IMG/VR virus record: IMGVR_UViG_3300045988_149268
Coordinates: 1 to 64,000 of that record
Direction: 5' to 3' (one strand)
DNA from: a virus
Length of the DNA: 64,000 bases
How positions within the stretch are numbered: the first letter of the stretch is position 1; every line of letters begins with the position of its first letter. Below the pieces are notes generated by a model. The model saw only the letters and a list, made by a program, of their open reading frames with translations. It searched no databases and was not told the origin of the DNA. Below, piece by piece: positions 3,380 to 64,000 of the stretch. Both the position numbers and the translations under genes were made by a program.

Positions 3380-3685
3380 ATGTATAGTGTAAAATTATAT
3401 GACAACGATGGCGTTGTCAGCACAATTAATGCTGATACTATTTATTATAATAACGCCGAAAATGGCGTATATCTTATTATAACTTGTTTGAACAAGGATA
3501 ATATCGGTATTAATTTTAATGATTTTCGGGGTGCTGGTTATACTCTTATTGAAGCAGAAAATGAAGATACCGTTATTCCTTTTAATAATTTCAATTATTG
3601 CTCTTCTGTTTCCTGTATGATGAGCGAAAAAATTGTATGGTCATTACAATTTTCTGAAAATGAAGGAGCTTTAACAGTTGAATAA
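3380..3685 (+). CDS. Hypothetical protein
   Basis: 101-aa ORF, RBS ggaaaggaag upstream, followed by terminator. Confidence 0.5.
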   Translation: MYSVKLYDNDGVVSTINADTIYYNNAENGVYLIITCLNKDNIGINFNDFRGAGYTLIEAENEDTVIPFNNFNYCSSVSCMMSEKIVWSLQFSENEGALTVE

Positions 3686-3690
3686 AATAA

Positions 3691-3717
3691 TAACCACCAA
3701 TGGTGGTTATTATTTTA
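3691..3717 (+). terminator. Rho-independent terminator
   Basis: ATAACCACC-AAT-GGTGGTTAT hairpin followed by T-rich tract. Confidence 0.65.
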
Positions 3718-3732
3718 ATTGGAGGAATTAAA

Positions 3733-4791
3733 ATGTCTACTTTAAAGATAGGGCCTGGAGCAGCATCTTTAGGCAATGGTGACAGAAAGGCCGGAGTGCG
3801 ATGTAATTTTAATGCCAGTGGAACCGCAGTTGGTTATGATACAAATACTTATAATTATTCGTTATTTTCTGTAACAATGAATATTTCTCTTTGTAAATAT
3901 TATTCTGTATACGGATATTTTGACGTATATAATCAAGCGGGCACCTTAATTGGAAGAACTAAATAGTGGAATGTGGCAGAAAATGCTGGTTCTGTTAAAG
4001 CCTCCGGTGCATCAGCTATATCTTGTACTTTTACTTTAATTAATACCAATCTCGCTGCAGCAATGTAGACGAGTAGCTTTTATTTAATTATTCGTAGAAG
4101 TGGCGGAAGTGGCAACTGCTGTAATATTAGATCTGGTTGTACTGGCACGCTTACTATTAATTATACAAGAACTACTAAAAATAGCCCCCCAGTTCATCCT
4201 ACTACAATTTATTATCCGGCCACAAACGGTGTAAAGACATATAATACAAAACCATACTTTTCATCTTTAACTGGCACAGACCCCGATGGGAATAATGTGC
4301 AATTAGGTTATGCAATTTATGATACAACTACAAAAACATGGCCACAAGCGACAAAATGGTTAGATGGATGGCATAGTGGAGGAACAAGAGTATATTGGTC
4401 ACATTAGACTGCGCTAACCACTGGTCATTATTATTAGCTTTATACATATGCAAGAGATACAAGTTATACCGTTGGAACGGGCAGTTCTGGTCTTCGTGGT
4501 TTTTATGTTTTAGATAATGGGCTATCTATTGGCAGTATAATTGATGACGCGACGATAGATACGTTATAGACAAAAATTAATAATGTTCAAGCATATTACG
4601 GACAAACAAAAAAAATTTTTACTGTTTGTGATAATGGCACAAAATTAAACCGTTCACAAATAGTTGAATTAGAAAATGCAATTGAAGGAACCCCATATAT
4701 TGCTACTACTGCCTATACATCTCCTGCGGTAGGAGACAAAGCGATTGCCAGTCAATTATCTTCCATTAACACAATTATTGGAAATGCTTGA
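3733..4791 (+). CDS. Hypothetical Thr/Gly-rich protein (possible surface or structural protein), 5 in-frame TAG
   Basis: ATG 3733 after RBS ggaggaattaaa; frame open to TGA 4789 apart from 5 TAG; track piece 3700-3966 is its N-terminus. Confidence 0.6.
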
Positions 4792-5323: not shown

Positions 5324-5399
5324 GCGGGATTAGCGCAGTTGGTAGCGCAACTGGCTTACATCCAGTCGGTCGGCAGTTCGAGTCTGTCATTCCGCACCA
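5324..5399 (+). tRNA. tRNA-Val (anticodon UAC), CCA encoded
   Basis: Acceptor GCGGGAT/ATTCCGC, D-arm GCGC..GCGC, anticodon stem ACTGG/CCAGT with loop CTTACAT, T-arm GGCAG TTCGAGT CTGTC, ACCA end. Confidence 0.75.
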
Positions 5400-7840: not shown

Positions 7841-8645
7841 GATGACAGGAGAAATTCAAATTCAAGATGTAAGTAAATATACTACGTCTATGTCAAAAAG
7901 TATGATTGATAAAATGTTTTTTATGGATAAAATTAATAGTTCCATAAAAGTCATTTTTGATTATGGATGTGCTGATGGAGCATTGATTAATTTCCTTGCA
8001 CCACTTTTTCCAGATATTGCCTTTATCGGATATGATGCCAGTGCAGAAATGATAGAACATGCAATTAGCAATAAGACATATGAGAATGTTTCATTTATAG
8101 ACAATTTGGACAATTTTTCTGCTTGGCTGTCTGAAAATCATTTTGCACCGAATCAATGCGCAATTAACCTTTCTTCATTGATTCACGAAGTTTATAGTTA
8201 TTCTTCAGTTCAAGAAATTGAAAAATTTTGGAATTTTGTAAACAAGAGTGGATTCGAATATATTATTATCCGTGATATGTGCTTGGATGCGGCGGCGCAT
8301 CGACCAGCACTGAAAGAAGATTTGATTAAGGTGCGTAGTCGATATGCTGCGGATAAAATTCGTGAATTTGAAAACATTCATGGTAGTATATGCGATAATT
8401 ATAATTTAATTCACTTTCTATTGAAATATCGCTATACTGAAAATTGGAACAGAGAAGTTCACGAAAATTATCTCCCACTTGCTGTTGAGGATATTGCTGG
8501 AAAAATTGATACTCATTATGAGTTAATTTATTTTGACCATTATATTCTTCCTTTTTTGGCAAACATTGTCCAAGTTGATTTTGATATTACGATAAAAGAT
8601 TACACCCATATCAAATTTATCTATCGACAGAAAGGAAATAAATAA
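7841..8645 (+). CDS. Class I SAM-dependent methyltransferase (substrate unknown; no DNA-MTase motif IV)
   Basis: Motif I VIFDYGCADGAL; start ATG 7841 after RBS agtgagggaaaag (track shows N-terminal over-extension from 7788). Confidence 0.55.
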
Positions 8646-8646
8646 T

Positions 8647-8946
8647 ATGGATGAAACTCTTGTTCTTTGGACGCATGGTGGCTGGATTCCTTATGCAGGA
8701 ATTTACGCAACAGATGTTAGCCGTATTCAAGATTTTAACGTAGTGATTGATGCTTTATGTTCTTCTGCAGGGCGTGAAATGTATAATCGCATTATTGTTT
8801 CAAGTTTTAATGAAATGCAACTATCTTTTGGGCTGGGAACTACAGGAGAATTGCTTCAAAAGCTTCATGAGCTGGAAGTAAAATATGATTATACGGTAAT
8901 TGTACTTCCTCATTCAATAGAAATTGAACATTATTTGGGAGTTTAA
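8647..8946 (+). CDS. Hypothetical protein
   Basis: 99-aa ORF tightly packed between neighbours. Confidence 0.45.
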   Translation: MDETLVLWTHGGWIPYAGIYATDVSRIQDFNVVIDALCSSAGREMYNRIIVSSFNEMQLSFGLGTTGELLQKLHELEVKYDYTVIVLPHSIEIEHYLGV

Positions 8947-8947
8947 G

Positions 8948-9748
8948 ATGCCAAAATTTACAAAATGGGAGCAGGCAATGATGTGCTTGCGACCTCAATA
9001 TAAAACAAAAAATTTTACTTATGAAGAAGCAAAATTATATCTGTTGAACACCGGCTTTGGTAATTTTACTAAAACTTCATGGAATGCGGCAATTAAGCAT
9101 AATATTATTAAAATTGATAATAATAATACTGCTTATTTTCTTTCAGAAAAAAATGAAGCAATTGATTCAGATTGGACGACTTCGCATCGTAAATATTTTA
9201 TATGCGAGCAAGATAAAACAAAAAAAGGATATGGAGATTTCTTTACAAAAGATGAGTTAATTTCTATTAACAATATTTATTTTAATTGGAAGTCAACTTG
9301 TGAGACATATCAATATTATGGATTTCGTAGACCAAATTTGCCTGAACCTATTAGCGAAGGTTTACCTAGCGCACTTTTTGGCTGGGCACGAACAAATAAT
9401 ATGCCACTTGAAAACATTGATGGTTCAGCAGATCTTGTCGATACAGTTAATGGGGATGCTATTCAAATTAAAGGTATTTCTGCTTATGATGAAAAAGATT
9501 GCGGTCCCACTTCATTTGGTCCTAATTCTAAATTTGACAGATTAATTGTTTTGTATGTTCGCCTGGACGAAGATAAAGTGTATTTTTATGAATTTCCAGA
9601 TGCTCAAGATTATAAGAAATGGAAAGTTAATGGAAATCAAACTGTTGCAGATCAACAATTTCAAAATAAACGACCAAGATTAAATTTAATTCCAATCTTG
9701 AAGGAGAGAGGGATTCAACCTTTCTTTGTATATAATTTTAATGTTTGA
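8948..9748 (+). CDS. Hypothetical protein; candidate restriction endonuclease partner of adjacent C5-MTase (unproven)
   Basis: ATG 8948 with RBS tgggagtttaag; immediately upstream of a DNA cytosine-5 MTase; no confident nuclease motif. Confidence 0.4.
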   Translation: MPKFTKWEQAMMCLRPQYKTKNFTYEEAKLYLLNTGFGNFTKTSWNAAIKHNIIKIDNNNTAYFLSEKNEAIDSDWTTSHRKYFICEQDKTKKGYGDFFTKDELISINNIYFNWKSTCETYQYYGFRRPNLPEPISEGLPSALFGWARTNNMPLENIDGSADLVDTVNGDAIQIKGISAYDEKDCGPTSFGPNSKFDRLIVLYVRLDEDKVYFYEFPDAQDYKKWKVNGNQTVADQQFQNKRPRLNLIPILKERGIQPFFVYNFNV

Positions 9749-9773
9749 CTTATTATAAAATTTTTGATATAAT
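9745..9773 (+). promoter_or_regulatory. Sigma-A type promoter TTGACT-N17-TATAAT
   Basis: Consensus hexamers, upstream of MTase gene. Confidence 0.55.
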
Positions 9774-9796
9774 TATAAAAAAGGAGCTGAGAAAGA

Positions 9797-50109: not shown

Positions 50110-51855
50110 ATGACTACGGTGTTGAAAAGAAACGGCGATTATGTACCATTTGATAAAAATAAAATTATTTCTGCAATTAGTAAAGCATTTTTAGATGTTG
50201 ATGGTTGTTTGTATGAAACAGATACAATTACTGATATTGCCGTAGATATTGAAAGATATTGTTCAGATAAAGATATTATTTCAATTGAATAGATTCAAGA
50301 TAAAGTAGAAGAATATCTAATGCGCTCAGAAAGACCTGATGTTGCTCGTGCTTATATTCGTTATCGCTATAAAAGACAAATTGCCAGATCGGCGAGCGAT
50401 ACTTTTATGAAAGCAATAGGAGAAAAGCTCAATGGCGCGAATATTGAGAATCAAAATGCCAATGTTGATGAACATTCTTTTGGTGGTCGCAAAGGCGAGG
50501 CCGATAGTATTTTAATGAAGAAATATGCACTTGACAATATTGTGTCAGATATGGCTCGTCGCAATCATGAAAATAATAGAATTTATATCCATGATTTAAG
50601 TGATTATGCAGTTGGCTCACATAATTGTCTATCTATTCCTTTTGATCATTTGCTGGCGGATGGATTTAATACAAGACAAACTGATATTCGTCCTGCCAAT
50701 AGTATTAATACTGCTTTTCAGCTTTTAGCTGTAATTTTTCAACTTCAATCACTTCAACAATTTGGTGGAGTAAGTGCGACGCATCTTGATTGGACGATGG
50801 TTCCTTATGTAAGAAAAAGTTTTAGAAAACATTATATTGATGGTTTAAAATATATTGAAAATATAAATGACGAAGAATTATTTCAACATATTCCAATGAC
50901 CGCTGGAATTCAAGATGGAGAATATAAAATTTATAAAAGTGCATATGATTACTCAATGGAAATGACAGAACGTGAACTTCAACAAGCTGTTGAAGGTATG
51001 TACCATAATCTTAATACTTTACAATCACGTTCTGGTAATCAATTACCTTTTACTTCTATTAATTATGGCACTTGCACTTTACCAGAAGGTAGAATGGTTA
51101 TCAAGGCTTTGCTCGAAGGCTCATTAAAAGGCATTGGTAAGCATCATAGAACACCAATTTTCCCTTGCGGTATCTTCCAAATTGGAGAAGGAATTAATAA
51201 ACGACCTGGTGATCCAAATTATGATTTATTTAGACTTGCTTTAAAATCAACCGCAAAAAGATTATATCCAAATTATGCTAATATTGACTGGTCTGGTAAT
51301 ATTGGATATGATCCCAGCCGACCCGATACTTATTTCAGCACGATGGGGTGCCGCACGGCAAATGGTTGGGATATAAATGGTCTTGGCCAGCAGAAAGATG
51401 GCCGTGGTAATATTTGTCCAGTGACGATCATTCTTCCTACTCTCGCCATGGAAGCAAAAGAAGGAATTGACTTCTTATTTCCTGTTGACGAAACTCCTGG
51501 CTATATTGATACTTTTATGAAAATTTTAAATAAAGCTATTGATGATGCTAAAGATATGTTGTTAGAACGTTTTAATTATATTTGTTCTCAAAATCCAGAA
51601 TCTGCAAGATTTATGTATGAAAATGGATTAATGGCTGGTTATATCCCAGAAGAAGGCATCATTAGCGCTTTAAAACACGGCACATTAGCGATCGGGCAAT
51701 TGGGACTAGCTGAAGCACTTCAAATTCTAATTAATTGTAATCAAACAACAGAAGAAGGAATGATTTTAGCTAAAAGAATTGAGTCTCTATTTAAAACAAA
51801 AGCAAGTGAATTTAAAGAACAGTATAAATTAAATTTTGGTGTATATTATACGCCT
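50110..51855 (+). CDS. nrdD: Anaerobic ribonucleoside-triphosphate reductase NrdD, exon 1 (1 in-frame TAG)
   Basis: ATP-cone VLKRNGDYVPFDKNKI, class III RNR core; track ORFs 50110-50292 and 50320-51891 share the frame; exon ends ..GVYYTP. Confidence 0.75.
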
Positions 51856-52818
51856 AAGATTGAATTGGGCGTCGTACAAGTAATTGTATGAAAAAATAAC
51901 CTTGTTAAACGGGCAATCGTAATAAGATGGTAAGAAAGCCTAAACCCTCATGGGCATGGTAATCCCGTAGGATAAAATCTATTGGACAGAAGTGAAAATT
52001 TGTGTTTCATAAAAATTTATGTTATAATAGAACAAGAAAGTGAGGTTTTATTATGGCACGAAGAAAAATGACAGAGAGATTAATTAATCGCAACGATATA
52101 AAAGAAGAGATGCGATTAATTAAAGGAAGTAACACAGATTATATCACTCCAACCGGAAATATATATAAAGATTATGGCAATAATATGTTTTATCATAAAT
52201 CTGTTTTTCCTAATAAAAATAATGGATATTTGTATTGTGGAATTACTTATATTAATGGATAGCGACAACGAAGAGTGCATATCTTAGTTGCAGAAGCATA
52301 TTTGCCAAATCCAGATAATTTACCTATTGTATTGCACTTAGATAATGATAAAAAAAATTGTAATATAAATAATTTAAAATGGGGAACCGTAAAAGAAAAT
52401 ACTTAGCAAGCATTCAATGATAACCTACAAATTAATGATAAGAGTTGGAAAGACTCTCAGTCTATTCATGTGTGTAGTTTTGATTTACAAGGAAATTTGT
52501 TAAATAAGCATGGGTCTATCGGAGAAGCATCTCGAATGTTGCAAGTAACAAAAACAACTATTTTAAATTAGTGTAATCATAATTTAAAGACTAAACCAAG
52601 ATGCGGTTACTATTTTAGGTATTTATCTGAATATGAGTCCAAGGGTTTTGTTCTCTAACGACTATCGAAAATATAGTTATAGAGAAATACTATAATGAAT
52701 AAATGAGTAGAGTAGGCAATAGCCGAAAGACAAGGCTCTTATTATTTGGTAACAGAATAATAAGATGATAATATAGTCTAACCCTCTTAAAAATATCGGG
52801 AAACCGAAGGTAGAAGTG
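51856..52818 (+). mobile_element. Group I intron in nrdD carrying HNH homing endonuclease
   Basis: Upstream frame ends ..NFGVYYTP then stop after 12 codons; downstream exon resumes AENLCYTS.. giving conserved TPAENLC junction; exon1 ends with T, intron ends with G; internal promoter-like aaaaatttatgttataat. Confidence 0.65.
52053..52658 (+). CDS. HNH homing endonuclease (intron-encoded; 3 in-frame TAG)
   Basis: HLDNDKKNCNINNLKWGTVKEN HNH motif; frame open through TAGs to TAA ~52656. Confidence 0.6.
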
Positions 52819-53301
52819 GCTGAAAATCTTTGCTATACGTCAATGAAGAAATTTAAAGATAAATATGGGATTATTCCAAAAGTTTCTGATAAAGAGTATT
52901 TTACAAATAGCATTCACGTTCCAGTTTGGGAAAAAGTTGATATGTTAAAGAAAATTGACATAGAAGCTCAATTAACTGGATATAGCTCCGCTGGATGTAT
53001 TACTTATGTTGAATTGGACGCAGGTATGGAAAATAATTTGGATGCTATGGAAGAAATTGTTATATATGCTATGAATAAAGATATTCCTTACTTTGCCATT
53101 AATGTGCCGAATGATACTTGCCTTGATTGTGGCTATACTGGAGAATTTAACAATCATTGTCCAGAATGTGGCAGTCCGCATATTCAGCAATTAAGACGTG
53201 TAACTGGTTATTTAACTGGTAACTATAAAACTGCTTTTAATAAAGGCAAAATTCAAGAAACAGATATGCGAGTTAAACATACAGGATTAATGGAGGATTA
53301 A
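52819..53301 (+). CDS. nrdD: NrdD exon 2 (glycyl-radical and Zn-ribbon C-terminal domain)
   Basis: CLDCGYTGEF..CPECGS zinc ribbon and glycyl radical motif RRVTGYL. Confidence 0.75.
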   Translation, partial: AENLCYTSMKKFKDKYGIIPKVSDKEYFTNSIHVPVWEKVDMLKKIDIEAQLTGYSSAGCITYVELDAGMENNLDAMEEIVIYAMNKDIPYFAINVPNDTCLDCGYTGEFNNHCPECGSPHIQQLRRVTGYLTGNYKTAFNKGKIQETDMRVKHTGLMED

Positions 53302-53303
53302 TT

Positions 53304-53789
53304 ATGAAATATGCAGGTATTATATATAACGATGTTGCCGCAGCGCCAGGAATTAGTCTTTCATTTTACACCCAGGGTTGCCCCAATCACTGCCCTGGGT
53401 GTCATAATCCTTAGACTTGGGATTTCAATGGAGGCAAAGAATTTACACCAGAAGTGTTAGATTCTATCGTAACTGGGCTTCACGCTCATGGGATTAATCA
53501 TTCCCTTTGTATTATGGGTGGAGAACCATTGTGCCCAGAGAATCAATTTTTAACGCGATTGATTATTGATACGGTTAAACAGAAAAGTCCATTTACTCCA
53601 ATTTATGTATGGACTGGATATACATATGAAGAATTAAAAACAATGACTTCAAATCATTTAACCGCCATTCTTTCATCTATTGATTTTTTGATTGACGGCC
53701 CATATAAACAAGAACTTAGAGATGTTACGCTACCAATGCGAGGCAGTTCAAATCAAAGAATTATTGATATGAGAAATATTGACAATTAA
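53304..53789 (+). CDS. nrdG: Anaerobic RNR activating protein NrdG (radical SAM; 1 in-frame TAG)
   Basis: CPNHCPGC = CxxxCxxC cluster; MKYAGIIYNDVAAAPGISLSFYTQGC N-terminus typical of NrdG; track piece 53454-53789 in same frame. Confidence 0.7.
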
Positions 53790-54593: not shown

Positions 54594-54826
54594 TGAAATA
54601 TTTGCTGAACGTGGTTGAAACTTATCGAGTTGATACTGTAAATGAAGCGCTTGAAATGCGCGATGAAGCAAATGACCAGTCTGAGTATGAACTTGAATCT
54701 TTTCAATATACTACTAAATTTAATAAGAAAACTGAAGAAGAATATCAAGTAGTAAAAATGAAAAAGAAGATTAATGTGGAAAAGGAGCCGGCGAGCGTAG
54801 TGAATATCGCCTATACATTTGGATGA
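54593..54826 (+). CDS. Hypothetical acidic protein
   Basis: 77-aa ORF. Confidence 0.4.
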   Translation: MKYLLNVVETYRVDTVNEALEMRDEANDQSEYELESFQYTTKFNKKTEEEYQVVKMKKKINVEKEPASVVNIAYTFG

Positions 54827-55428
54827 AAATTGAAGCAGGTTTTGAAAGAATTACAAAATATCAAGAGGATAATGATGTAAAAATCCCTAATCGCAAGACC
54901 GCAGCGTCTGCAGGTTATGATTTTTATGCCGCGGAAGATACTATCGTTCCAGCTTATGATATTATGTTGTCTGATTTTCAAAATAGTCTTATTCAAGAAG
55001 AAATTTCAGACAAGGAACGCTTTAAGACAATTGAAGACGTAGATAAGGCATTTAATCCGATCTCTCTTGCGGATTTTGCCACTTTAACAAAAAAGTATAA
55101 ATTTAAACCAACTCTTGTTCCTACTGGTATTAAATGTAAAATGCCAGAAGATATCTATCTACAGTTAAGTGTGCGCAGCTCTTTGCCACTAAAGGATTGG
55201 CTTGTTTTAGCAAATGGTGTTGGTATTATTGATGCCGATTACTATAACAATCCAGACAATGAAGGACATATTTATTTTCAACTAATCAACTTTTCTCCAT
55301 TTCCGATTTTGATTAAAAAGGGAGATTGCTTTGGATAGGGCATTCTTCTTCCATATAATACTTGTGCTAACGAAGACAAAGTGACAGCAACTCGCGAAGG
55401 TGGCTTTGGTTCTACAAGTGGCAAGTAA
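54823..55428 (+). CDS. dut: dUTP diphosphatase (1 in-frame TAG near C-terminus)
   Basis: dUTPase motifs RKTAASAGYDFYA, RSSL, GVGIIDADY, C-terminal RGGFGSTG-like (TREGGFGSTSGK). Confidence 0.7.
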
Positions 55429-56545: not shown

Positions 56546-57060
56546 TACATTTCGCAGAATTCTTTTTGTAATGTTTGAATAAATATTGGACTAAAACTTG
56601 TTATTTGAATTTTTTGTCTTAATGCTTCAACCATCGCTAATTCGCATTCAACATCTTCAATTAGTTCTTCGATTTCTTCTTTATCGCTAATTTGTTCTAT
56701 TTCTGCCCATTCTGTATATAATGCTTTTTTTGTTTCTTCTTCCCATTTAATGTATTTGTCTAATGCCATTTTTAATGTATTCGTAACATCAGTTTGAGAT
56801 ACTTCGAGCGCGGAACGAGAATACCACTCATTTGGAATTAGATTCTCTGCATATTGGACATTTTGTAAATTAATTAGCATATGATGATATTTCAATATGT
56901 GACATTTAAAATTTTGTAAATGTTCGGCTTCTTCGCACATTTGACATTTTTGCCATTTATAAAATCCTTTCAATCCTAAAAAATGAAAGAGATCTGCCAT
57001 TTCAGTGTGGAACATAACACCAGCCAATAGATGTTCACCAATTTTTACTAAATGGGTCAT
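56539..57060 (-). CDS. Hypothetical protein (last gene of - strand operon)
   Basis: 173-aa ORF ending at bidirectional terminator. Confidence 0.5.
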   Translation of the reverse strand: MTHLVKIGEHLLAGVMFHTEMADLFHFLGLKGFYKWQKCQMCEEAEHLQNFKCHILKYHHMLINLQNVQYAENLIPNEWYSRSALEVSQTDVTNTLKMALDKYIKWEEETKKALYTEWAEIEQISDKEEIEELIEDVECELAMVEALRQKIQITSFSPIFIQTLQKEFCEMYK

Positions 57061-57470
57061 ACAGGTTTAACTGTTACAGCGGCGTTAGAAACAATCGCCG
57101 CATTTGCTCCTGTATTTACTACTGTTAATTGCGCAATGTTATTGATTGCTGGGCAAGAGGGAAGAACTCTAATTGCCGCGGTAAAGCTATAATTATCAAT
57201 ATTATTCGCTGTTGCTACGGTTGTCGTAGCCAATGCGCCTTTAACAGCGGTTCCATTATTATATAAAGAAAATTGTGACGTTCCAGTCGTGGCTGATGTA
57301 GCATCTAAATTTACTGATATAATATATGTACCAGCTTTATTAATTGTAATCGTCGGAGTTCCAGCAATATGAGTAATTCCATCGCAAGAACATTTAACAC
57401 CATTTGTATTTAAAACAACATCGCTATTAGCATTTACAGTTTGACTGTCAAGAGAGTAGGTATATAACAT
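57057..57470 (-). CDS. BclA-C-terminal/C1q-like beta-sandwich domain protein (Thr/Ala/Asn-rich)
   Basis: Start MLYTYSL after RBS gagaggaggctaacgtaatg; composition and pattern of BclA-like C-terminal domains. Confidence 0.45.
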   Translation of the reverse strand: MLYTYSLDSQTVNANSDVVLNTNGVKCSCDGITHIAGTPTITINKAGTYIISVNLDATSATTGTSQFSLYNNGTAVKGALATTTVATANNIDNYSFTAAIRVLPSCPAINNIAQLTVVNTGANAAIVSNAAVTVKPV

Positions 57471-57487
57471 TACGTTAGCCTCCTCTC

Positions 57488-58177
57488 TTAGACTCCGCAT
57501 CCACAATAATTATTCGTCGCCGCATATGGTGAAGAAGTTACATAGGCTGGACGTGGAACAGGCTGTAAAGCACCCAAGATATTTTGCGTTTGTAAGTTGT
57601 TAGACAATGCAGAGCGGGTAGTAGAAAGTTCATCTCTAAGAGTCTGAATTTGATTCTGCATCATAGCGTCTAAAATGCGTTGTGTATTTTCATTCTAAGC
57701 AGTAATAATATCGCAAGTATTTTTTGCATTTTCATAGCGCACTGCATCAATATTGCGGTTAGTGGTGCAGCAGCACTCTTGCTGAGCGAAACGATTTTCA
57801 TTCAGCTGTGTGCCAAGACCATAGAAACCATTGGTCATGGCCGATTGTAGATTAGTAAGATTCTGTAAATTATCATATTTCACAGAACCCCAGTTGTTTG
57901 CCGCATCGCGCTCAAAAGCACGAAGTTCAGAAGCGATTTCGCTCTGATTGCGGAAAACATCTTGCTGGCCGAGTCCTTGATATAATTCGGCTCTTGTCAA
58001 CGCTCCTTCCACAGCGTTGTTGTTGCCACCAAAGAATCCGCCACCGCCCCAGGCGAGTAAGAAGAACAAGAAGAAAACCCAAATCCAGGTTCCTCCTGCT
58101 CCACCAAAACCATTATTATTGCCATTTGTCATTGCCATTGCGTCTGCTAAGCTAAATCCGCCGTTTTCAAGTGCCAT
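57488..58177 (-). CDS. Glycine-rich membrane protein (1 in-frame TAG)
   Basis: GG-rich segments flanking TM WIWVFFLFFLLAW; frame continues through TAG to TAA at 57488. Confidence 0.45.
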
Positions 58178-58863: not shown

Positions 58864-59265
58864 TCATTTAGCCGGGGTCTTATTTTCTTTTACTTGAGCC
58901 TCTATTAAATTCATAATATAACTCTGTAAATCACCAGTTGCGTTTGATAAATAATCTTTTGCATCTTCAGATAAAATTGCCATAATAGCGCTATATGTCT
59001 TTTGAAGTGCTTCTTTTTGAGCTTCTTCAGTAAAGGCGTTTTTGTCTTTTAGCGCATCAACATAAGTTTGATTTGTCGCAATAACACAATTTGTAACCGT
59101 CTTATTCAACATATCAAAATACTTCTTAAAAATTTCATTATCTGTCTTTTCTTTAAGTTCTTCATTTTTAACAGCAAAAAATTGAACCATATACTTTGTA
59201 ATAAGCCCCAATAGAGGAATAATTACAACCACAAAAAGATTTTGTAAAATTTCAGTCCAGTCCAT
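58864..59265 (-). CDS. Holin, phiLC3/Phage_holin_1-like
   Basis: 133 aa, single N-terminal TM VVVIIPLLGLITKYMV, long charged C-terminus; immediately upstream (in transcript order downstream) of lysin; RBS aagggagtatgattt. Confidence 0.55.
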   Translation of the reverse strand: MDWTEILQNLFVVVIIPLLGLITKYMVQFFAVKNEELKEKTDNEIFKKYFDMLNKTVTNCVIATNQTYVDALKDKNAFTEEAQKEALQKTYSAIMAILSEDAKDYLSNATGDLQSYIMNLIEAQVKENKTPAK

Positions 59266-59278
59266 AAATCATACTCCC

Positions 59279-60232
59279 TTATTTATAAAAAATAAAATAT
59301 TGTTTTGCTTGTGATCTTAGGTTAGATTTTTTTGATTTTGCGCGGGCCGCAGAACTTCCACCTGGGTCACAAATATAAACATAGGTATCGTCAACTTTCC
59401 ACCAACAGATGTAATGACCATGCTTTGTCCATACTCCTGGACCAACAGAACAAACAACATAGGCGCCATTTTTAATAGCCTTCTCCGCTGTTGCATATGA
59501 GCTTGTCTAAACAAAATTTGATGCTTTATATTTTTTAGCAACATATTTAAAGAAGCTCCAAGAAGTGCCATTGTTTTCTGTGCGGAATCCAGCATCAACT
59601 GCTAAAGCACACATTTCAACTGGTGTTATTTTTTTATCCCACCATGTAGCTACAATATCCGCCATTGCAGTTGGGCCACAACCAGAATTACCAATATTTT
59701 GTGTTTTATTATATGTATTATTTTTTGTGAAAACAACTTTTTTCCATTTAGAATCATATTGTTTGTAATTTACTGGCTGTTTAGTATTTGTGCCTCCACT
59801 GCTAACTGAATTAGAGCTATTGCTAGCAGAAGCTGTTCCAGATAAACCAAACAATGCCGCCCACGTTTTTTGTCCTATGATTCCGTCAGCAACAAGATTT
59901 GCGGTTGTCTAAAAGGTTTTGACATGAGCTTTTTCGTCAACTTTAAATATACCATCTTGAGCCATAGTCTATAGTAAACATTCTAAAACATTAACCCATT
60001 TACCAGAGGAACCAACTTTAAGTGTAGGGGCATCTTTTACAATTGCAGCATAAGTATTTTTTCCAACAATACCATCCGCTATTAATTCTTTACTTTTTTG
60101 ATATGCTCGAATAGCTTGCTCAGTATTTTTACCAAAAATACCATCAGCATCAATTTCTAAAATATATTGTAGAGCTTTGACATATTCATTTTTTGAGCCT
60201 TTTTTAAGAGTTACCATGTGGATTATCCTCAC
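59279..60232 (-). CDS. Peptidoglycan hydrolase: 2x PG_binding_1 repeats + Ser-rich linker + C39-like cysteine peptidase (3 in-frame TAG)
   Basis: PG-binding repeats ADGIFGKNTEQAIRAYQ / ADGIVGKNTYAAI / ADGIIGQKTWAAL; C-terminal GNSGCGPTAMADI (Peptidase_C39_2-like Cys) and GHYICWW His; track ORFs 59969-60232 and 59507-59854 are one frame; 59317-59598 is spurious. Confidence 0.6.
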
Positions 60233-60652
60233 TTTCTGTTAAAATAAATTCTTCAGAAGTCCAAAATACTTCTGGCTCTTTTTTAACGAGCAAATTATGA
60301 ATCCAATCCATTATCTTCTTCAACATCGTCATAATCCTCCTATATTTCGCCATTAAGCACTTTTTCTAAAATTAAACGACGAGTTTCAAGTTTAATTTTA
60401 TTTTCAGTTTTTGCTTTATAAGAATAAAAACCTGAAATTACAGATGCTTCAACAAAGACTGATGGAATTAAATACTCTAATGGCGATAAATCATTAGTCA
60501 TAACCATTAAAATAATTGTAAAAATTACAACCAAAATAGTTATAGCCATAATTACAATACACAGTAATTTACTAAAAGAAGTGCCGCGACTGCTATCTGC
60601 GCGCATTGCATCTTGAATATATGGATATGCCAATCGCGGCAAGTCTTCTTCA

Positions 60653-62350
60653 TTATACTGTTGCTGCTCCGAGAGCCTTCCACGTCGCTTTACCAACGAT
60701 ACCATCTACTTTCAAATTTTTATCTTTCTAAAAATTTCTTACAGCTTGTTGGGTCTTAGAACCAAAATTACCATCAATTCCAGTTTTACCAACATCGTAG
60801 CCAAGAGCAACAAGAATGGTCTATAATTCTTTTACATAATCATTAATCATTCTTTTTTTAAGCATTGGATAATTTGTAAAATCTTTTCCTTCCGCTGGTT
60901 TTGTTTCTTCTGGCTTATCTTTTCCTTGCGCCGCAATTAAAGCTGCAAAAGTTTTCTTACCAGCTAAGCCATCTACTTTTAAATCATTATCTTTCTAAAA
61001 AAGTTTTACTGCATTGATGGTTTCATCCTAATAATATCCATCTGTTGGAGCTTTATAATCTAACTCGCACAATAATTCTTGTAGTTCTTTAACATCAGTC
61101 CCAGAATAACCTTTTCTTAAAGTTCGAGATCCAAATTTATATTCTTTCAATGAATCATTAGAATCAGTATCTGGTTTTTGCACAGAACCTGAAACATATT
61201 CTACACCTGGAAACTCATACCAGTCAGTCCAAGGTCTATCTTTCAATTTGGTAATAATAATTCCTTTTGCAAAGCCATAGGCTTCAACAACTTCTCCATT
61301 GCCAATATAATATCCAACATGTCCATCTTTACGAACAGCAAGGCCAGGAATTTCAGGAATTGTATTAATTGGACCGTAATTTTTCTTTTTACTTTTAGCA
61401 TATGTAAACATTCCATTTGCACTTCTGTCAGGACATCCGTTGGAACCATATTTACTAACAATTTTTTTACCAGTTCCAATAGCTTCAATAACACCAACGC
61501 CACCGTTTGTCCAAACAAAACCTTTGCCCAGCCCAACGCAATCAGCACATACACATTTATTCGCTATTGCTTTATTATACTTCGCCATACGGCTTGAAGT
61601 GTAATGGCTTGGATATTGTCTAGATTTAGATTTTAATACAGAAGCTGTGCAATTATATACACAAGTTCCATACCAATATGGCTGTCCAACCATCTACTTT
61701 AAAAAATTAACAAAATCAATATTCGTAAGTCCCATAGTTTTCTTTCCTCCATTAAGAGTCGAGGTGTTCTCACCATAGTTGTTACGGATGTCAGTACCTG
61801 GATAATAAAAATTTAAAATCTCAATATAAGTTTTACCAATAGACGCAGCGTATTTGGCGCCAGCTTGGCTCATACCAACTCCGTGGCCGTTCTTTTTGCC
61901 TTGGGAAGCGGCCCGGTCCCATGGGTCATCGCGCGCAATTAAGTATGGTCTATCCCCTCCCCATACTTCTTTTGATGAATACGTGCGACCGCCATTTGTT
62001 GCAGCATAATTAGCATTTGTGATTAAAGAATTTTTATAAAATAGAACTTGCCCTTCTGTATCAGAAACAGCTTGATGTGCTTTGTCATAAGCGGCAGAAA
62101 AACGTGAAGCTCTAAATGCCTAATCTATACTACTTTTATCTGTAATATAGCCTTGTCTTTTATACTTATTTAAAGCAAAAGTTCTAGCAGCTATTGCTTG
62201 CGCTTTCCCAGCTTCTAAGGGCGCATTACCAATTTCTGATGGAACAACTCCTTTTAAATATTCTTCAATATCAATTTCAATTAGATTTTTATGATAATAA
62301 TTAATATTTTCTGAACGACTTAATTTTACTTTAATTATCATAACAATCAA
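60653..62350 (-). CDS. Multidomain cell-wall hydrolase: SpoIID/LytB-like domain + NlpC/P60 peptidase + 2x PG_binding_1 (4 in-frame TAG)
   Basis: SpoIID-like AQAIAARTFAL..NGGRTYSSKEVWGG..GHGVGMSQAGA; NlpC/P60 Cys ADCVGLGKGFVW and His GHVGYYIG; C-terminal PG_binding_1 repeats where TAG sits at conserved Gln (F-Q-KD..L.VDG); track ORFs 62120-62350 and 61028-61693 share frame; 60340-60705 spurious. Confidence 0.6.
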
Positions 62351-62365
62351 TCCTAAAAAAAATAA

Positions 62366-62387
62366 GCCGCATTTGCGGCTTATTTTT
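62366..62387 (-). terminator. Hairpin ATAAGCCGCA-TT-TGCGGCTTAT between - strand genes (possible attenuator/terminator)
   Basis: Perfect 10-bp inverted repeat followed (on - strand) by T-run. Confidence 0.5.
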
Positions 62388-62712
62388 ATTTTATCTCACT
62401 AAATTCAACTTCAATATTGCGATTAGCATTCTCAGCTCTATCATTAATCTGAGAAACGCTTAATGAAACGGGGATATGATCATAAAGCACATTATCAGAA
62501 TTGCCAATTAAATGAAAATCAATAATTTGAGTTCCATTCTCAACAAGAGAAAGTAAATAAGTAATCGCCAAATTCGCTTTATCTGGACTTAAAGAAACTG
62601 AAATCGTTTTATTGATTTCACCATCTCTTAAATAAGCATAATTAACAGATAAAACCTCAATCTTATTATTCGTGTCCTTGTTTAATATAAGCTGCATAAA
62701 AAGTCTCCTCAC
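62386..62712 (-). CDS. Hypothetical protein (likely start at MQLILNK ~62697)
   Basis: RBS aagtgaggagactttttatg precedes second Met. Confidence 0.45.
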   Translation of the reverse strand: MRRLFMQLILNKDTNNKIEVLSVNYAYLRDGEINKTISVSLSPDKANLAITYLLSLVENGTQIIDFHLIGNSDNVLYDHIPVSLSVSQINDRAENANRNIEVEFSEIK

Positions 62713-63293
62713 TTTTCTTTATAAAAATCAAGAGCTTGTAAGTATGCTTCTGAAAGACGCAATGAAGTTGGTCGAGAATCTTTCCAAGTTTTTACTTCAT
62801 CAAGAATAGATGATGTAGCATTAATTAAGTCAATATAAGATACTCCAACTGTAATCAATCTTATTACTGATCCAAGACCTTGCTGAATGTCAATAATACC
62901 GTGTAAATATTCATCGAATTCAGGACGATTTTCTGGCTCTTGCGTAACCTTATCTTTAATAATATCGCAGAAATTATCACACATACATAGCCAAGCATTT
63001 AAGAAATCTTCCCAAGCCATACAATTAAGATCTCTCAACATATAAGATGGCATAGCATTTGTAATCTCTTTTAATGTATACACAGTGCTAAAATCTGGGT
63101 ATTGGACAGAGCCTAAACCACCATCTCCACAACTCATTGCGGATTCAATCACTTTACTAACTTCGCCCATAGTATTTAAAAGTTGAGGATAATCGTTTAA
63201 TAGGATTACCCCAATTTCATCTCTTGTATCAAGAGATTTAAGAATAATATATCGTGCGTCTCCATAAGACATATTTTTAATCTGCATAATCAT
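62709..63293 (-). CDS. Hypothetical protein
   Basis: Start MIMQIKNMSYGD overlapping upstream gene stop (ATGATTATGCAGATTAA); track ORF over-extended to 63380. Confidence 0.45.
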   Translation of the reverse strand: MIMQIKNMSYGDARYIILKSLDTRDEIGVILLNDYPQLLNTMGEVSKVIESAMSCGDGGLGSVQYPDFSTVYTLKEITNAMPSYMLRDLNCMAWEDFLNAWLCMCDNFCDIIKDKVTQEPENRPEFDEYLHGIIDIQQGLGSVIRLITVGVSYIDLINATSSILDEVKTWKDSRPTSLRLSEAYLQALDFYKEK

Positions 63294-64000
63294 AATTCGC
63301 AAAAACTTCCTTTCTAATGCGTTCAAGTTCAAGGGTTTTATCTTCACCAATCTGTGATAAAATATAGTTATATGCGTCATATTTTAACAAGCATTCAATA
63401 CTCGTTGCAACAACAGCATACATTACGATACAAACAGATGGAATTGGTACAAATAAATTACGAGTCGCTTCGTATTGCGCACCAAGACAAGTACCGACAC
63501 AGCAGTGTCTAATTGCGCAATTAGCGCAGTATGGGAACGCTTCTTTATGTGCAAAATAGGTAGCACTCAATAATTCGGCATTAATGTTTTTAAATTTTAA
63601 AATCTTTTCATCATCTTCTACCAATTGCCCAAAATAGAAATCTTTATAGCCGGTGCGGTGACACGGATATAACATTAAGTCACTAAGTCTAACAGTAAAC
63701 TGGCTTTGAATGCCGCAAGTTAATCCGCGTCCTGTGCTACTAAAAGGTTCAGCCAAAAGATTAAAGCCACCACCCTTTAGGATAAAATCTACCATTTGAT
63801 AGGGATTGTGTTCGCACTTCTCCCAAACAAAAGCATAAAGATGACGAATAAATTTCTGTAATTCCCATACATCTTCTTGTTTCCACTCTTCATTTCTAAC
63901 TTGTAACAAATAAATTGTTTCCCAAGGAATATCATATTCTGCCATTTTTTCTTGGAACCAATCGAAATTTTTAATCCAATTTTTTATATTCTTACTATAA
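63277..64000 (-). CDS. Radical-SAM family protein, SPASM-domain C-terminal portion (partial; N-terminus beyond window)
   Basis: CANCAIRHCCVGTC = CxxCx5Cx3C SPASM motif plus upstream Cys (CHRTGY); reading frame stays open to window edge with no RBS at the 63945 ATG. Confidence 0.4.
   Translation of the reverse strand, partial: YSKNIKNWIKNFDWFQEKMAEYDIPWETIYLLQVRNEEWKQEDVWELQKFIRHLYAFVWEKCEHNPYQMVDFILKGGGFNLLAEPFSSTGRGLTCGIQSQFTVRLSDLMLYPCHRTGYKDFYFGQLVEDDEKILKFKNINAELLSATYFAHKEAFPYCANCAIRHCCVGTCLGAQYEATRNLFVPIPSVCIVMYAVVATSIECLLKYDAYNYILSQIGEDKTLELERIRKEVFANYDYAD

Follow-up and report, generated by a model that had tools for sequence, protein, structure and literature searches.

Paired radical-SAM/SPASM genes at the distal end of a tail-fibre region in uncultivated phages, and their candidate repeat-protein substrates

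Maturases of the radical S-adenosylmethionine (SAM)/SPASM class are known from bacterial pathways for peptides that are made on ribosomes and modified post-translationally (RiPPs), from the maturation of sulfatases and quinohemoproteins and, as a recent addition, from the HXS system. To our knowledge, no such maturase has been tied to phage structural genes. Here we analyse a partial gene of this class, rSAM-2, which runs off the end of a 64,000-nt stretch of viral DNA (IMG/VR record IMGVR_UViG_3300045988_149268, positions 1 to 64,000; the whole stretch is called the window below), together with the module of genes found around its orthologs in related phages. HXS is the closest known architecture: a 214-aa HxS-repeat protein is matured by two radical-SAM enzymes and a small partner, the modification maps to an SHRSS motif, and HxsD binds HxsC (PMC13128918). 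Among the triceptide maturases (ChlB, XyeB, YhhB, FxsB, GrrM and MicB), ChlB is a multiple-cyclophane synthase for which Y-S-K and H-A-S (Tyr-x-Lys and His-x-Ser) are proven cyclophane sites (PMC12912966). The phage module resembles HXS in having two different radical-SAM enzymes, a small protein encoded beside the second and a candidate substrate that is a protein-sized aromatic/His-x-Ser repeat protein; the likeness is one of analogy only, as there is no family-level homology. We lean towards the reading, which we hold to be slightly better than even, that rSAM-2 belongs to a paired maturase acting on two repeat proteins, A and B, encoded upstream.

The open frame of rSAM-2 extended from a TAA stop at 63279-63277 to the window edge at 63999 on the - strand. 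The preliminary description, drawn up from the letters of the window, had called it a partial radical-SAM/SPASM gene on account of a CxxCx5Cx3C motif with additional Cys residues, and this assignment stood. The motif that it quoted, CANCAIRHCCVGTC (63487-63528), lay within a complete seven-Cys SPASM pattern, C-x(9-15)-G-x4-C ... C-x2-C-x5-C-x3-C ... C, formed in the fragment by C95 in RGLTC (63715-63717), C113 in YPCH (63661-63663), the central run C158-x2-C161-x5-C167-x3-C171 and C190 in PSVC (63430-63432). In the close subgroup of relatives the first spacer is 17 residues long and another residue stands in place of its Gly; the canonical form, C-x11-G-x4-C, is found in the distant subgroup. 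The seven Cys columns were invariant or nearly so in an alignment of 11 family members, and the NCBIfam model of the SPASM domain, TIGR04085, matched the fragment at 30.4 bits against a cutoff of 27 (E = 4e-7). A Pfam scan of the fragment gave no match, PF13186 included. The SPASM region is real, and well beyond chance.

The radical-SAM core had been expected beyond position 64,000, and a nearly identical ortholog carries it in its N-terminal part. An exact 58-mer from the window edge had no match in IMG/VR, and a scan of JGI metagenomes gave relatives but not the contig of the window. A homolog (P0015) 94 % identical to the 194-aa protein encoded next to rSAM-2 led to L024, a 162-kb metagenomic phage contig from the ENA, with which the last 11 kb of the window are collinear (88 % DNA identity over the ~8.6 kb that reach the window edge, 84 % over 2 kb more). 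The L024 ortholog of rSAM-2 (8629-10017) is 462 aa long, agrees with the window protein at 234 of the 240 visible residues (97.5 %) and has CNLGCKYC (CX3CX2C) at residues 54-61. Given this identity, the radical-SAM motif was counted as present in the window gene, the motif itself lying beyond 64,000. The same CX3CX2C was found in the full-length relatives P0001 (414 aa as called), P0008-P0012 and P0014. The Pfam models Radical_SAM (PF04055), Fer4_12 and SPASM (PF13186) matched distant full-length homologs, and PF04055 and PF13186 were both matched by P0009 and P0014. Against the PF04055 gathering cutoff of 29.5, these two distant proteins scored 39-53 bits, P0008 25.6 and P0001 18.1; the precomputed Pfam match of the L024 ortholog was marked weak. 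Since only ~45 residues precede the cluster motif of rSAM-2, the enzyme has no RiPP recognition element (RRE) domain.

A HMMER scan of the 240-aa fragment against 1.84 billion cluster representatives returned 435 proteins at E <= 1e-3, 320 at <= 1e-10 and 73 at <= 1e-30, most of them 420-470 aa long. The family amounts to hundreds of 50 %-identity clusters in metagenomes; it is distinct, moderately large and without a name. Its best matches were maturases of peptides or proteins, which bore out the enzyme type first proposed. The top NCBIfam model for both phage radical-SAM enzymes (35-102 bits) was the PapB ranthipeptide maturase (NF047865), yet its cutoff of 340 was not reached (fragment 35.2 bits, P0001 49, P0009 92). 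SCIFF, nif11, CbpB, DynA, QhpD and anSME followed, all far below cutoff: the SCIFF maturase CteB model (TIGR03974, cutoff 425) gave 21.6-24 bits and anSME (TIGR03942, cutoff 349) 12.9-27.4 bits. Of the HXS models, HxsB (cutoff 370) scored from 19.8 bits for P0001 to 53 bits for rSAM-1 of locus L003, the partner enzyme described below, and HxsC, HxsA and HxsD (TIGR03976-03979 set) had no match at E <= 0.01 among the radical-SAM enzymes, repeat proteins or downstream proteins. Triceptide models matched weakly as well, at 14-58 bits against 310-450: for P0001, YhhB gave 22 bits, FxsB 16.4 and XyeB 14.6 (cutoffs 370-450), and for L003 rSAM-1, YhhB gave 57.8 bits and GrrM 48.8, below their cutoffs.

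Comparison with known structures placed the enzyme in the same branch. The family profile matched CteB, a SCIFF/ranthipeptide thioether synthase (5wgg/5why), best in the PDB (5wgg, E = 1e-26), followed by anSME (4k36, E = 6e-14). An AlphaFold2 (AF2) model of P0001 (predicted local distance difference test, pLDDT, 80.7) gave Foldseek template-modelling (TM) scores of 0.58 with CteB, its best hit, 0.60 with anSME and 0.56-0.62 with ChlB (9gm3), which was among the top structure matches. CteB and PapB-type maturases share the CX3CX2C core and the seven-Cys SPASM with the phage enzyme, and the alignment to CteB runs over both; however, it covers CteB 90-439 only, at ~17 % identity, and the N-terminal RRE of CteB (residues 1 to ~90) is absent from the phage enzyme. 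All in all, rSAM-2 is a radical-SAM/SPASM enzyme of the peptide/protein-maturase branch that belongs to none of its named families.

The relatives showed the window gene to be the second of a pair. In L024 the - strand block contains, in order, a leucine-rich-repeat (LRR) protein of 2632 aa, a number of structural genes, a fibre protein whose length is 427 aa by the standard code and 618 aa when TAG is sense, a protein of 364 aa, one of 286 aa, a first radical-SAM gene (rSAM-1, with CNMACKYC) and then the rSAM-2 ortholog, which overlaps rSAM-1 by 19 nt. The position of rSAM-2 'at the head of the late - strand block' in the preliminary description was thus an artefact of the window edge, the block continuing through rSAM-1, the repeat proteins, the fibre genes and the LRR protein. 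When open reading frames (ORFs) were called with TAG as sense in 17 loci besides L024, a second CX3CX2C gene lay directly upstream of rSAM-2 and overlapped it in all 13 loci for which upstream sequence was available, over a range of 29-97 % identity to the window protein. The pair is translationally coupled. Upstream of rSAM-1, two Tyr/His/Ser/Thr/Asn-rich proteins of 82-538 aa were encoded in 12 of the 12 loci with enough sequence (L001, L003, L004, L007, L012, L015-L019, L021 and L024), so that the module order in relatives is fibre gene, repeat protein A, repeat protein B, rSAM-1 and rSAM-2. In all loci rSAM-2 is followed by a 170-200-aa protein; in the close subgroup this is the 194-aa helical protein, with the 103-aa protein after it. 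The flanking genes encode tail-fibre N-termini (…YTPNYNLxxP…), Baseplate_J, DUF4815 and PAAR proteins, and the genes that come after the module in distant relatives are again tail-fibre genes and not lysis genes. The module sits at the distal end of the tail-fibre region in a group of uncultivated phages. Within the pair, the SPASM Cys pattern of rSAM-1 in the close subgroup is reduced to its first half, and the enzyme is twitch-like. An origin of the two genes by recent duplication was rejected, on 24 % identity over 291 aa in L003 and a similarity confined to the cluster motif in L024.

The two upstream proteins share an unusual layout. Protein B begins with a helix-like segment of ~30 residues (…TKIRxxHIxELRxAI… in the distant group), followed by a Cys at the leader/core junction that was invariant in 10 of 10 sequences and stands in the context C-[PA]-[STA]-[HY]. 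Protein A begins with two helix-like segments followed by a conserved Gly-Cys. The cores after the Cys range from ~50 to ~470 residues, and in eight large cores of the close subgroup that were measured they consist of nearly nothing except Tyr, Thr, Ser, Asn, Gly and His, arranged in a four-residue repeat [Y/H/N]-x-[S/T/G]-x. Autocorrelation of aromatic and Ser/Thr residues in these cores had maxima of up to 0.46 at lags 4, 8 and 12 and was negative at lag 2. At the +2 position after Y/H/W/F, Ser/Thr made up 52 % of residues against a background of 27 %, and Gly/Ala 24 %. The six largest cores held 31-77 [YHWF]-x-[ST] motifs per protein, ~2x the shuffled expectation and 5-9 standard deviations above it; the two L001 cores held only 11 and 13, at 1.4-2 standard deviations above expectation. 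A leader-like N-terminus, a junction Cys, a repetitive core and two adjacent maturase-type enzymes together make the layout of a RiPP precursor at protein size. In a divergent locus (L015 2-560, ERZ795058 NODE-4064), the repeat proteins are much richer in Cys, as in CPLNCTGVCTAV and HCSANNVAHCGGNYTCY, which hints that lineages may differ in how far their chemistry relies on Cys or on aromatic residues.

Set beside these cores, the known maturases differ mainly in what they act on. The substrate logic of the triceptides, repeated aromatic-x-X, is shared with the phage repeats, which are enriched in it; however, triceptide substrates are short peptides with 1-5 motifs that are released by proteolysis, and the phage loci combine far longer cores with no protease. 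CteB and PapB act on a Cys-rich short peptide, in contrast to the phage candidates with one to few Cys, and no SCIFF-like six-Cys peptide was seen in the loci. These matches to RiPP maturases (PapB, SCIFF, nif11 and CbpB) could nevertheless be taken to indicate a classical small RiPP system with a bacteriocin-like product, whose short precursor ORF went undetected, as short ORFs easily do. We regard this as quite improbable: the enzyme has no RRE, the module genes are tightly packed or overlapping and leave no conserved intergenic room for a short ORF, neither a protease nor an exporter lies in the neighbourhood, and the B proteins already have a leader-Cys-core form.

HXS offers another contrast in substrate. 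HxsA has five basic HxS repeats and a peptidoglycan-binding domain, while the phage proteins have tens of Tyr-dominated tetrads; HXS is a bacterial anti-phage system, and the phage module lies in a tail-fibre block of the phage genome. The shared architecture, together with the ability of matured HxsA to block phage DNA entry (PMC13128918), raises an unlikely alternative in which the same enzymes act on the same repeat proteins, but A and B are HxsA-like effectors of superinfection exclusion or counter-defence and not virion parts. Apart from the lack of HxsA, HxsC and HxsD matches and the low HxsB scores, A and B are Tyr-rich and not basic, have no peptidoglycan-binding domain and, on inspection of the sequences, no obvious signal peptide, and they are encoded between fibre genes in a late structural block.

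In the reading that we favour, each enzyme of the pair would reductively cleave SAM at its CX3CX2C cluster, and the resulting 5'-deoxyadenosyl radical would take a hydrogen from a side chain in the [Tyr/His/Asn]-x-[Ser/Thr/Gly]-x cores of A and B, with the SPASM clusters serving electron transfer. Repetition of this step would introduce covalent intramolecular crosslinks at many sites. The link that we favour is a three-residue, cyclophane-type C-C bond from an aromatic ring to the C-beta of the +2 residue. With CteB and PapB as the closest matches, a thioether from the conserved leader/core junction Cys is the main alternative. Any particular type of bond must be held considerably less probable than the enzyme-substrate relation as such. 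A stiff fibre or adhesin that resists proteases would result. In its full form, the proposal that fibre-associated proteins with up to ~77 Tyr/His-x-Ser/Thr motifs are stitched at many sites by a phage radical-SAM pair, in widespread uncultivated phages, is tentative and rather doubtful. If it were true, these proteins would be the first radical-SAM-crosslinked virion structural proteins and the largest and most repetitive substrates of the enzyme class. Crosslinking of fibre proteins by the module would be a new post-translational chemistry in virion assembly, would supply enzymology and peptide engineering with substrates that are very large and have many sites, and would explain oxygen-sensitive enzymes in the late operons of phages that infect anaerobes.

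Several points weigh against the action of the pair on A and B. As no cutoff of a named maturase family was reached, the chemistry is not transferable by homology. The repeat proteins belong to no Pfam, NCBIfam or PHROG family, and a search of 5.8 billion proteins with repeat protein B gave 344 candidates, none of them significant. Gly or Ala occupies +2 in many of the repeats, where a C-beta crosslink would form poorly or not at all. Substrates of 82-538 aa with as many as ~77 sites would be unprecedented for the enzyme class, and adjacency in phage structural modules can persist without an enzyme-substrate relation. The roles proposed for A and B as substrates, as crosslinked proteins and in the virion draw on gene context and sequence, and the upstream genes are expected in the window's own genome from their presence in L024, at 88 % DNA identity.

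The composition of the repeats is relevant to a further explanation as well. Ser/Thr-rich repeats are typical targets of O-glycosylation, SPASM/twitch enzymes also act on sugars, and DesII appeared among the structural matches at a lower TM of 0.39-0.44. The radical-SAM pair might therefore act on a non-protein substrate, such as a sugar for fibre glycosylation, a nucleotide or a cofactor, its adjacency to the repeats being indirect. Inspection of the sequence of L007 revealed a gene for a glycosyltransferase family 2 (GT2)-like protein at 3547-4596, near the module and just upstream of the fibre/repeat-protein genes, and on this evidence the repeat proteins might also be glycosylated. That the pair has a non-protein substrate seems improbable to us, since the best matches (PapB, CteB, anSME, ChlB and SuiB) are all peptide or protein maturases, sugar-nucleotide genes are not conserved in the module across loci, and two different radical-SAM enzymes co-vary with two repeat proteins in every locus.

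The module was then sought among cultured phages and reference genomes. Neither the window fragment nor P0001 had a match in 50,697 GenBank phage records (megablast and tblastn), no relative was found in 185,579 GTDB species representatives, PHROGs offered nothing beyond a generic 'radical SAM' family, with phrog_1802 as the sole match, and literature searches on phage radical SAM/SPASM enzymes in connection with tail fibre, virion or RiPP yielded nothing on the module. The suspicion, voiced at the outset, that such an arrangement is uncharacterised in phages was thus confirmed: the module of radical-SAM enzymes and repeat proteins is absent from cultured phages and reference genomes. The only relatives found in cultured phages were radical-SAM genes of Campylobacter phages CP220/CPt10 (phrog_1802), which were matched at ~26 % identity by the distant member P0014 and not by the window protein or P0001. 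They were rejected as the same module since their context is unrelated, with replication and nucleotide-metabolism neighbours, no repeat proteins and no pairing. A match of P0014 in L027 (GenBank MT835472.1, 'UNVERIFIED: Bacteriophage sp.', 59225-74214) was rejected likewise. Inspection of the ORF translations in L027 showed a CX3CX2C enzyme of 451 aa, extended at its N-terminus and resembling a SCIFF-type maturase, and after it a large membrane protein that looks SecD-like; the scaffold looks bacterial rather than phage-derived.

The Campylobacter genes are annotated 'arylsulfatase regulator', and anSME is among the best structure and sequence matches of the phage enzyme. As an RRE-less SPASM enzyme of similar size and fold that acts on a folded protein (4k36-4k39), anSME makes formylglycine formation in a phage sulfatase or related hydrolase conceivable. 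It is nonetheless very improbable here. The TIGR03942 scores are far below cutoff, no sulfatase domain occurs in any neighbourhood, and the sulfatase motif C/S-x-P/A-x-R is lacking, the Cys of protein B being followed by P/A already at +1.

Downstream of rSAM-2, the two small ORFs of the preliminary description were found to encode proteins of 194 and 103 aa, both kept in relatives, with lysis genes beyond them (Table 1). The ATG of the 194-aa gene lies inside the end of rSAM-2, an overlap of 17 nt that is suggestive of translational coupling, and the gene has the same position in L001, L004, L007, L013 and L024. Its homologs P0015-P0019 are 46-94 % identical to it (BLASTP) and have no conserved Cys. 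The last 22 residues (RPTSLRLSEAYLQALDFYKEK, 62712-62777, - strand) were identical in five of six aligned sequences, including homologs that are 50-52 % identical overall, and P0019, at 46 % identity, has two conservative changes there, S178V and R179K. This near-invariant C-terminus may be a docking peptide or be under a strong constraint of another kind. AF2 predicted seven helices in an all-alpha fold (pLDDT 83.3), for which Foldseek found no match at E <= 0.001 in the PDB or BFVD; in view of this confident model without a fold match, an RRE or other known fold was rejected. The protein has no Pfam, NCBIfam or PHROG family, and its homology to the positionally equivalent ~170-aa proteins of distant loci was not supported (hhalign probability 0.14 %). 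The 103-aa protein likewise has no Pfam, NCBIfam or PHROG family, and jackhmmer matched it in L024, L004, L013, L001 and L014 only, all of the close subgroup.

A modification of one of these two proteins, or of a neighbouring lysis or virion peptide, had been the initial proposal for the enzyme. Immediate adjacency with the gene overlap, the synteny of the rSAM-194-103 trio in close relatives and the 22-residue C-terminus as a possible site of recognition or modification all speak for it. We consider it a poor prospect, however. The 194-aa protein, with its unconserved Cys and predicted well-folded helical bundle, is too large and structured for a RiPP precursor; neither protein has a repeat or leader/core architecture, and neither is detectable in distant loci that keep both radical-SAM genes. 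The link to lysis fared no better, as a terminator intervenes and tail-fibre genes follow the module in distant relatives. With A and B as the favoured substrates, the 194-aa protein may instead be a non-catalytic partner of rSAM-2, by analogy with the binding of HxsC by HxsD.

The strong terminator-like hairpin between the 103-aa gene and the first lysin was identical in L024 and, with A- and T-tracts on both sides, could terminate transcription bidirectionally. Its position after the 103-aa gene makes the lysis cassette a separate or attenuated unit. A scan for sigma-70-like promoters found no more sites than the shuffled expectation. The cassette comprises a SpoIID/NlpC-P60/peptidoglycan-binding lysin, a membrane protein and a second, peptidoglycan-binding/C39-like lysin, and thus appears to encode two different cell-wall hydrolases.

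Table 1. Positions of rSAM-2 and the genes and signals downstream of it in the window
Feature	Positions	Strand	Basis or remark
rSAM-2 C-terminus, 240 codons + stop	63277-64000	-	Open frame, translation; gene runs past the window edge
SPASM auxiliary-cluster region	63430-63717	-	Seven conserved Cys of the visible rSAM-2 fragment
194-aa all-helical protein	62709-63293	-	Sequence, homologs P0015-P0019, AF2
103-aa protein	62386-62697	-	Preceded by GGAG; ATG 62697 matches the ortholog start
Intrinsic-terminator-like hairpin, AAGCCGC-AAAT-GCGGCTT then A + T8	62355-62387	-	Sequence; scan lists 62358-62387
SpoIID/NlpC-P60/peptidoglycan-binding lysin	60653-62350	-	In-frame TAG at 62122, 61696, 61030 and 60997
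Second lysin-like protein, three PG_binding-like repeats + C39/CHAP-like domain	59279-60232	-	
Small membrane proteins flanking the second lysin, putative holins	60295-60705, 58864-59265	-	

In the late genes of this phage TAG is translated as sense, and the same holds for L001, L004, L007, L012 and L024. Because TAG is sense, the first lysin looks like three or four broken ORFs under translation table 11. In alignments between the window and its relatives, TAG faced Gln most often (27 of 70 TAG positions aligned with an amino acid), and 15 more positions faced TAG; Q47 (CAG) of the rSAM-2 fragment, for example, faces TAG in L024. The tRNAs called in the window by ARAGORN were tRNA-Thr at 39-114 and tRNA-Val at 5324-5399 only, with no suppressor tRNA among them.

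Further along the - strand, beyond the lysis genes, the window encodes a 229-aa protein (57488-58177) that has a membrane segment rich in Gly and Phe, a CCC motif and, at the C-terminus, CGCGV, and a 149-aa protein (57057-57506) whose L001 homolog has a weak Pfam match to BclA_C (exosporium, C1q-like); both are kept in relatives. On the + strand, an anaerobic ribonucleotide reductase, NrdD, is apparently split over two ORFs (50110-51891 and 52765-53301) and is adjoined by its radical-SAM activase NrdG (53304-53789). The NrdD and NrdG genes fit an obligately anaerobic host. A dUTPase is encoded at 54823-55428.

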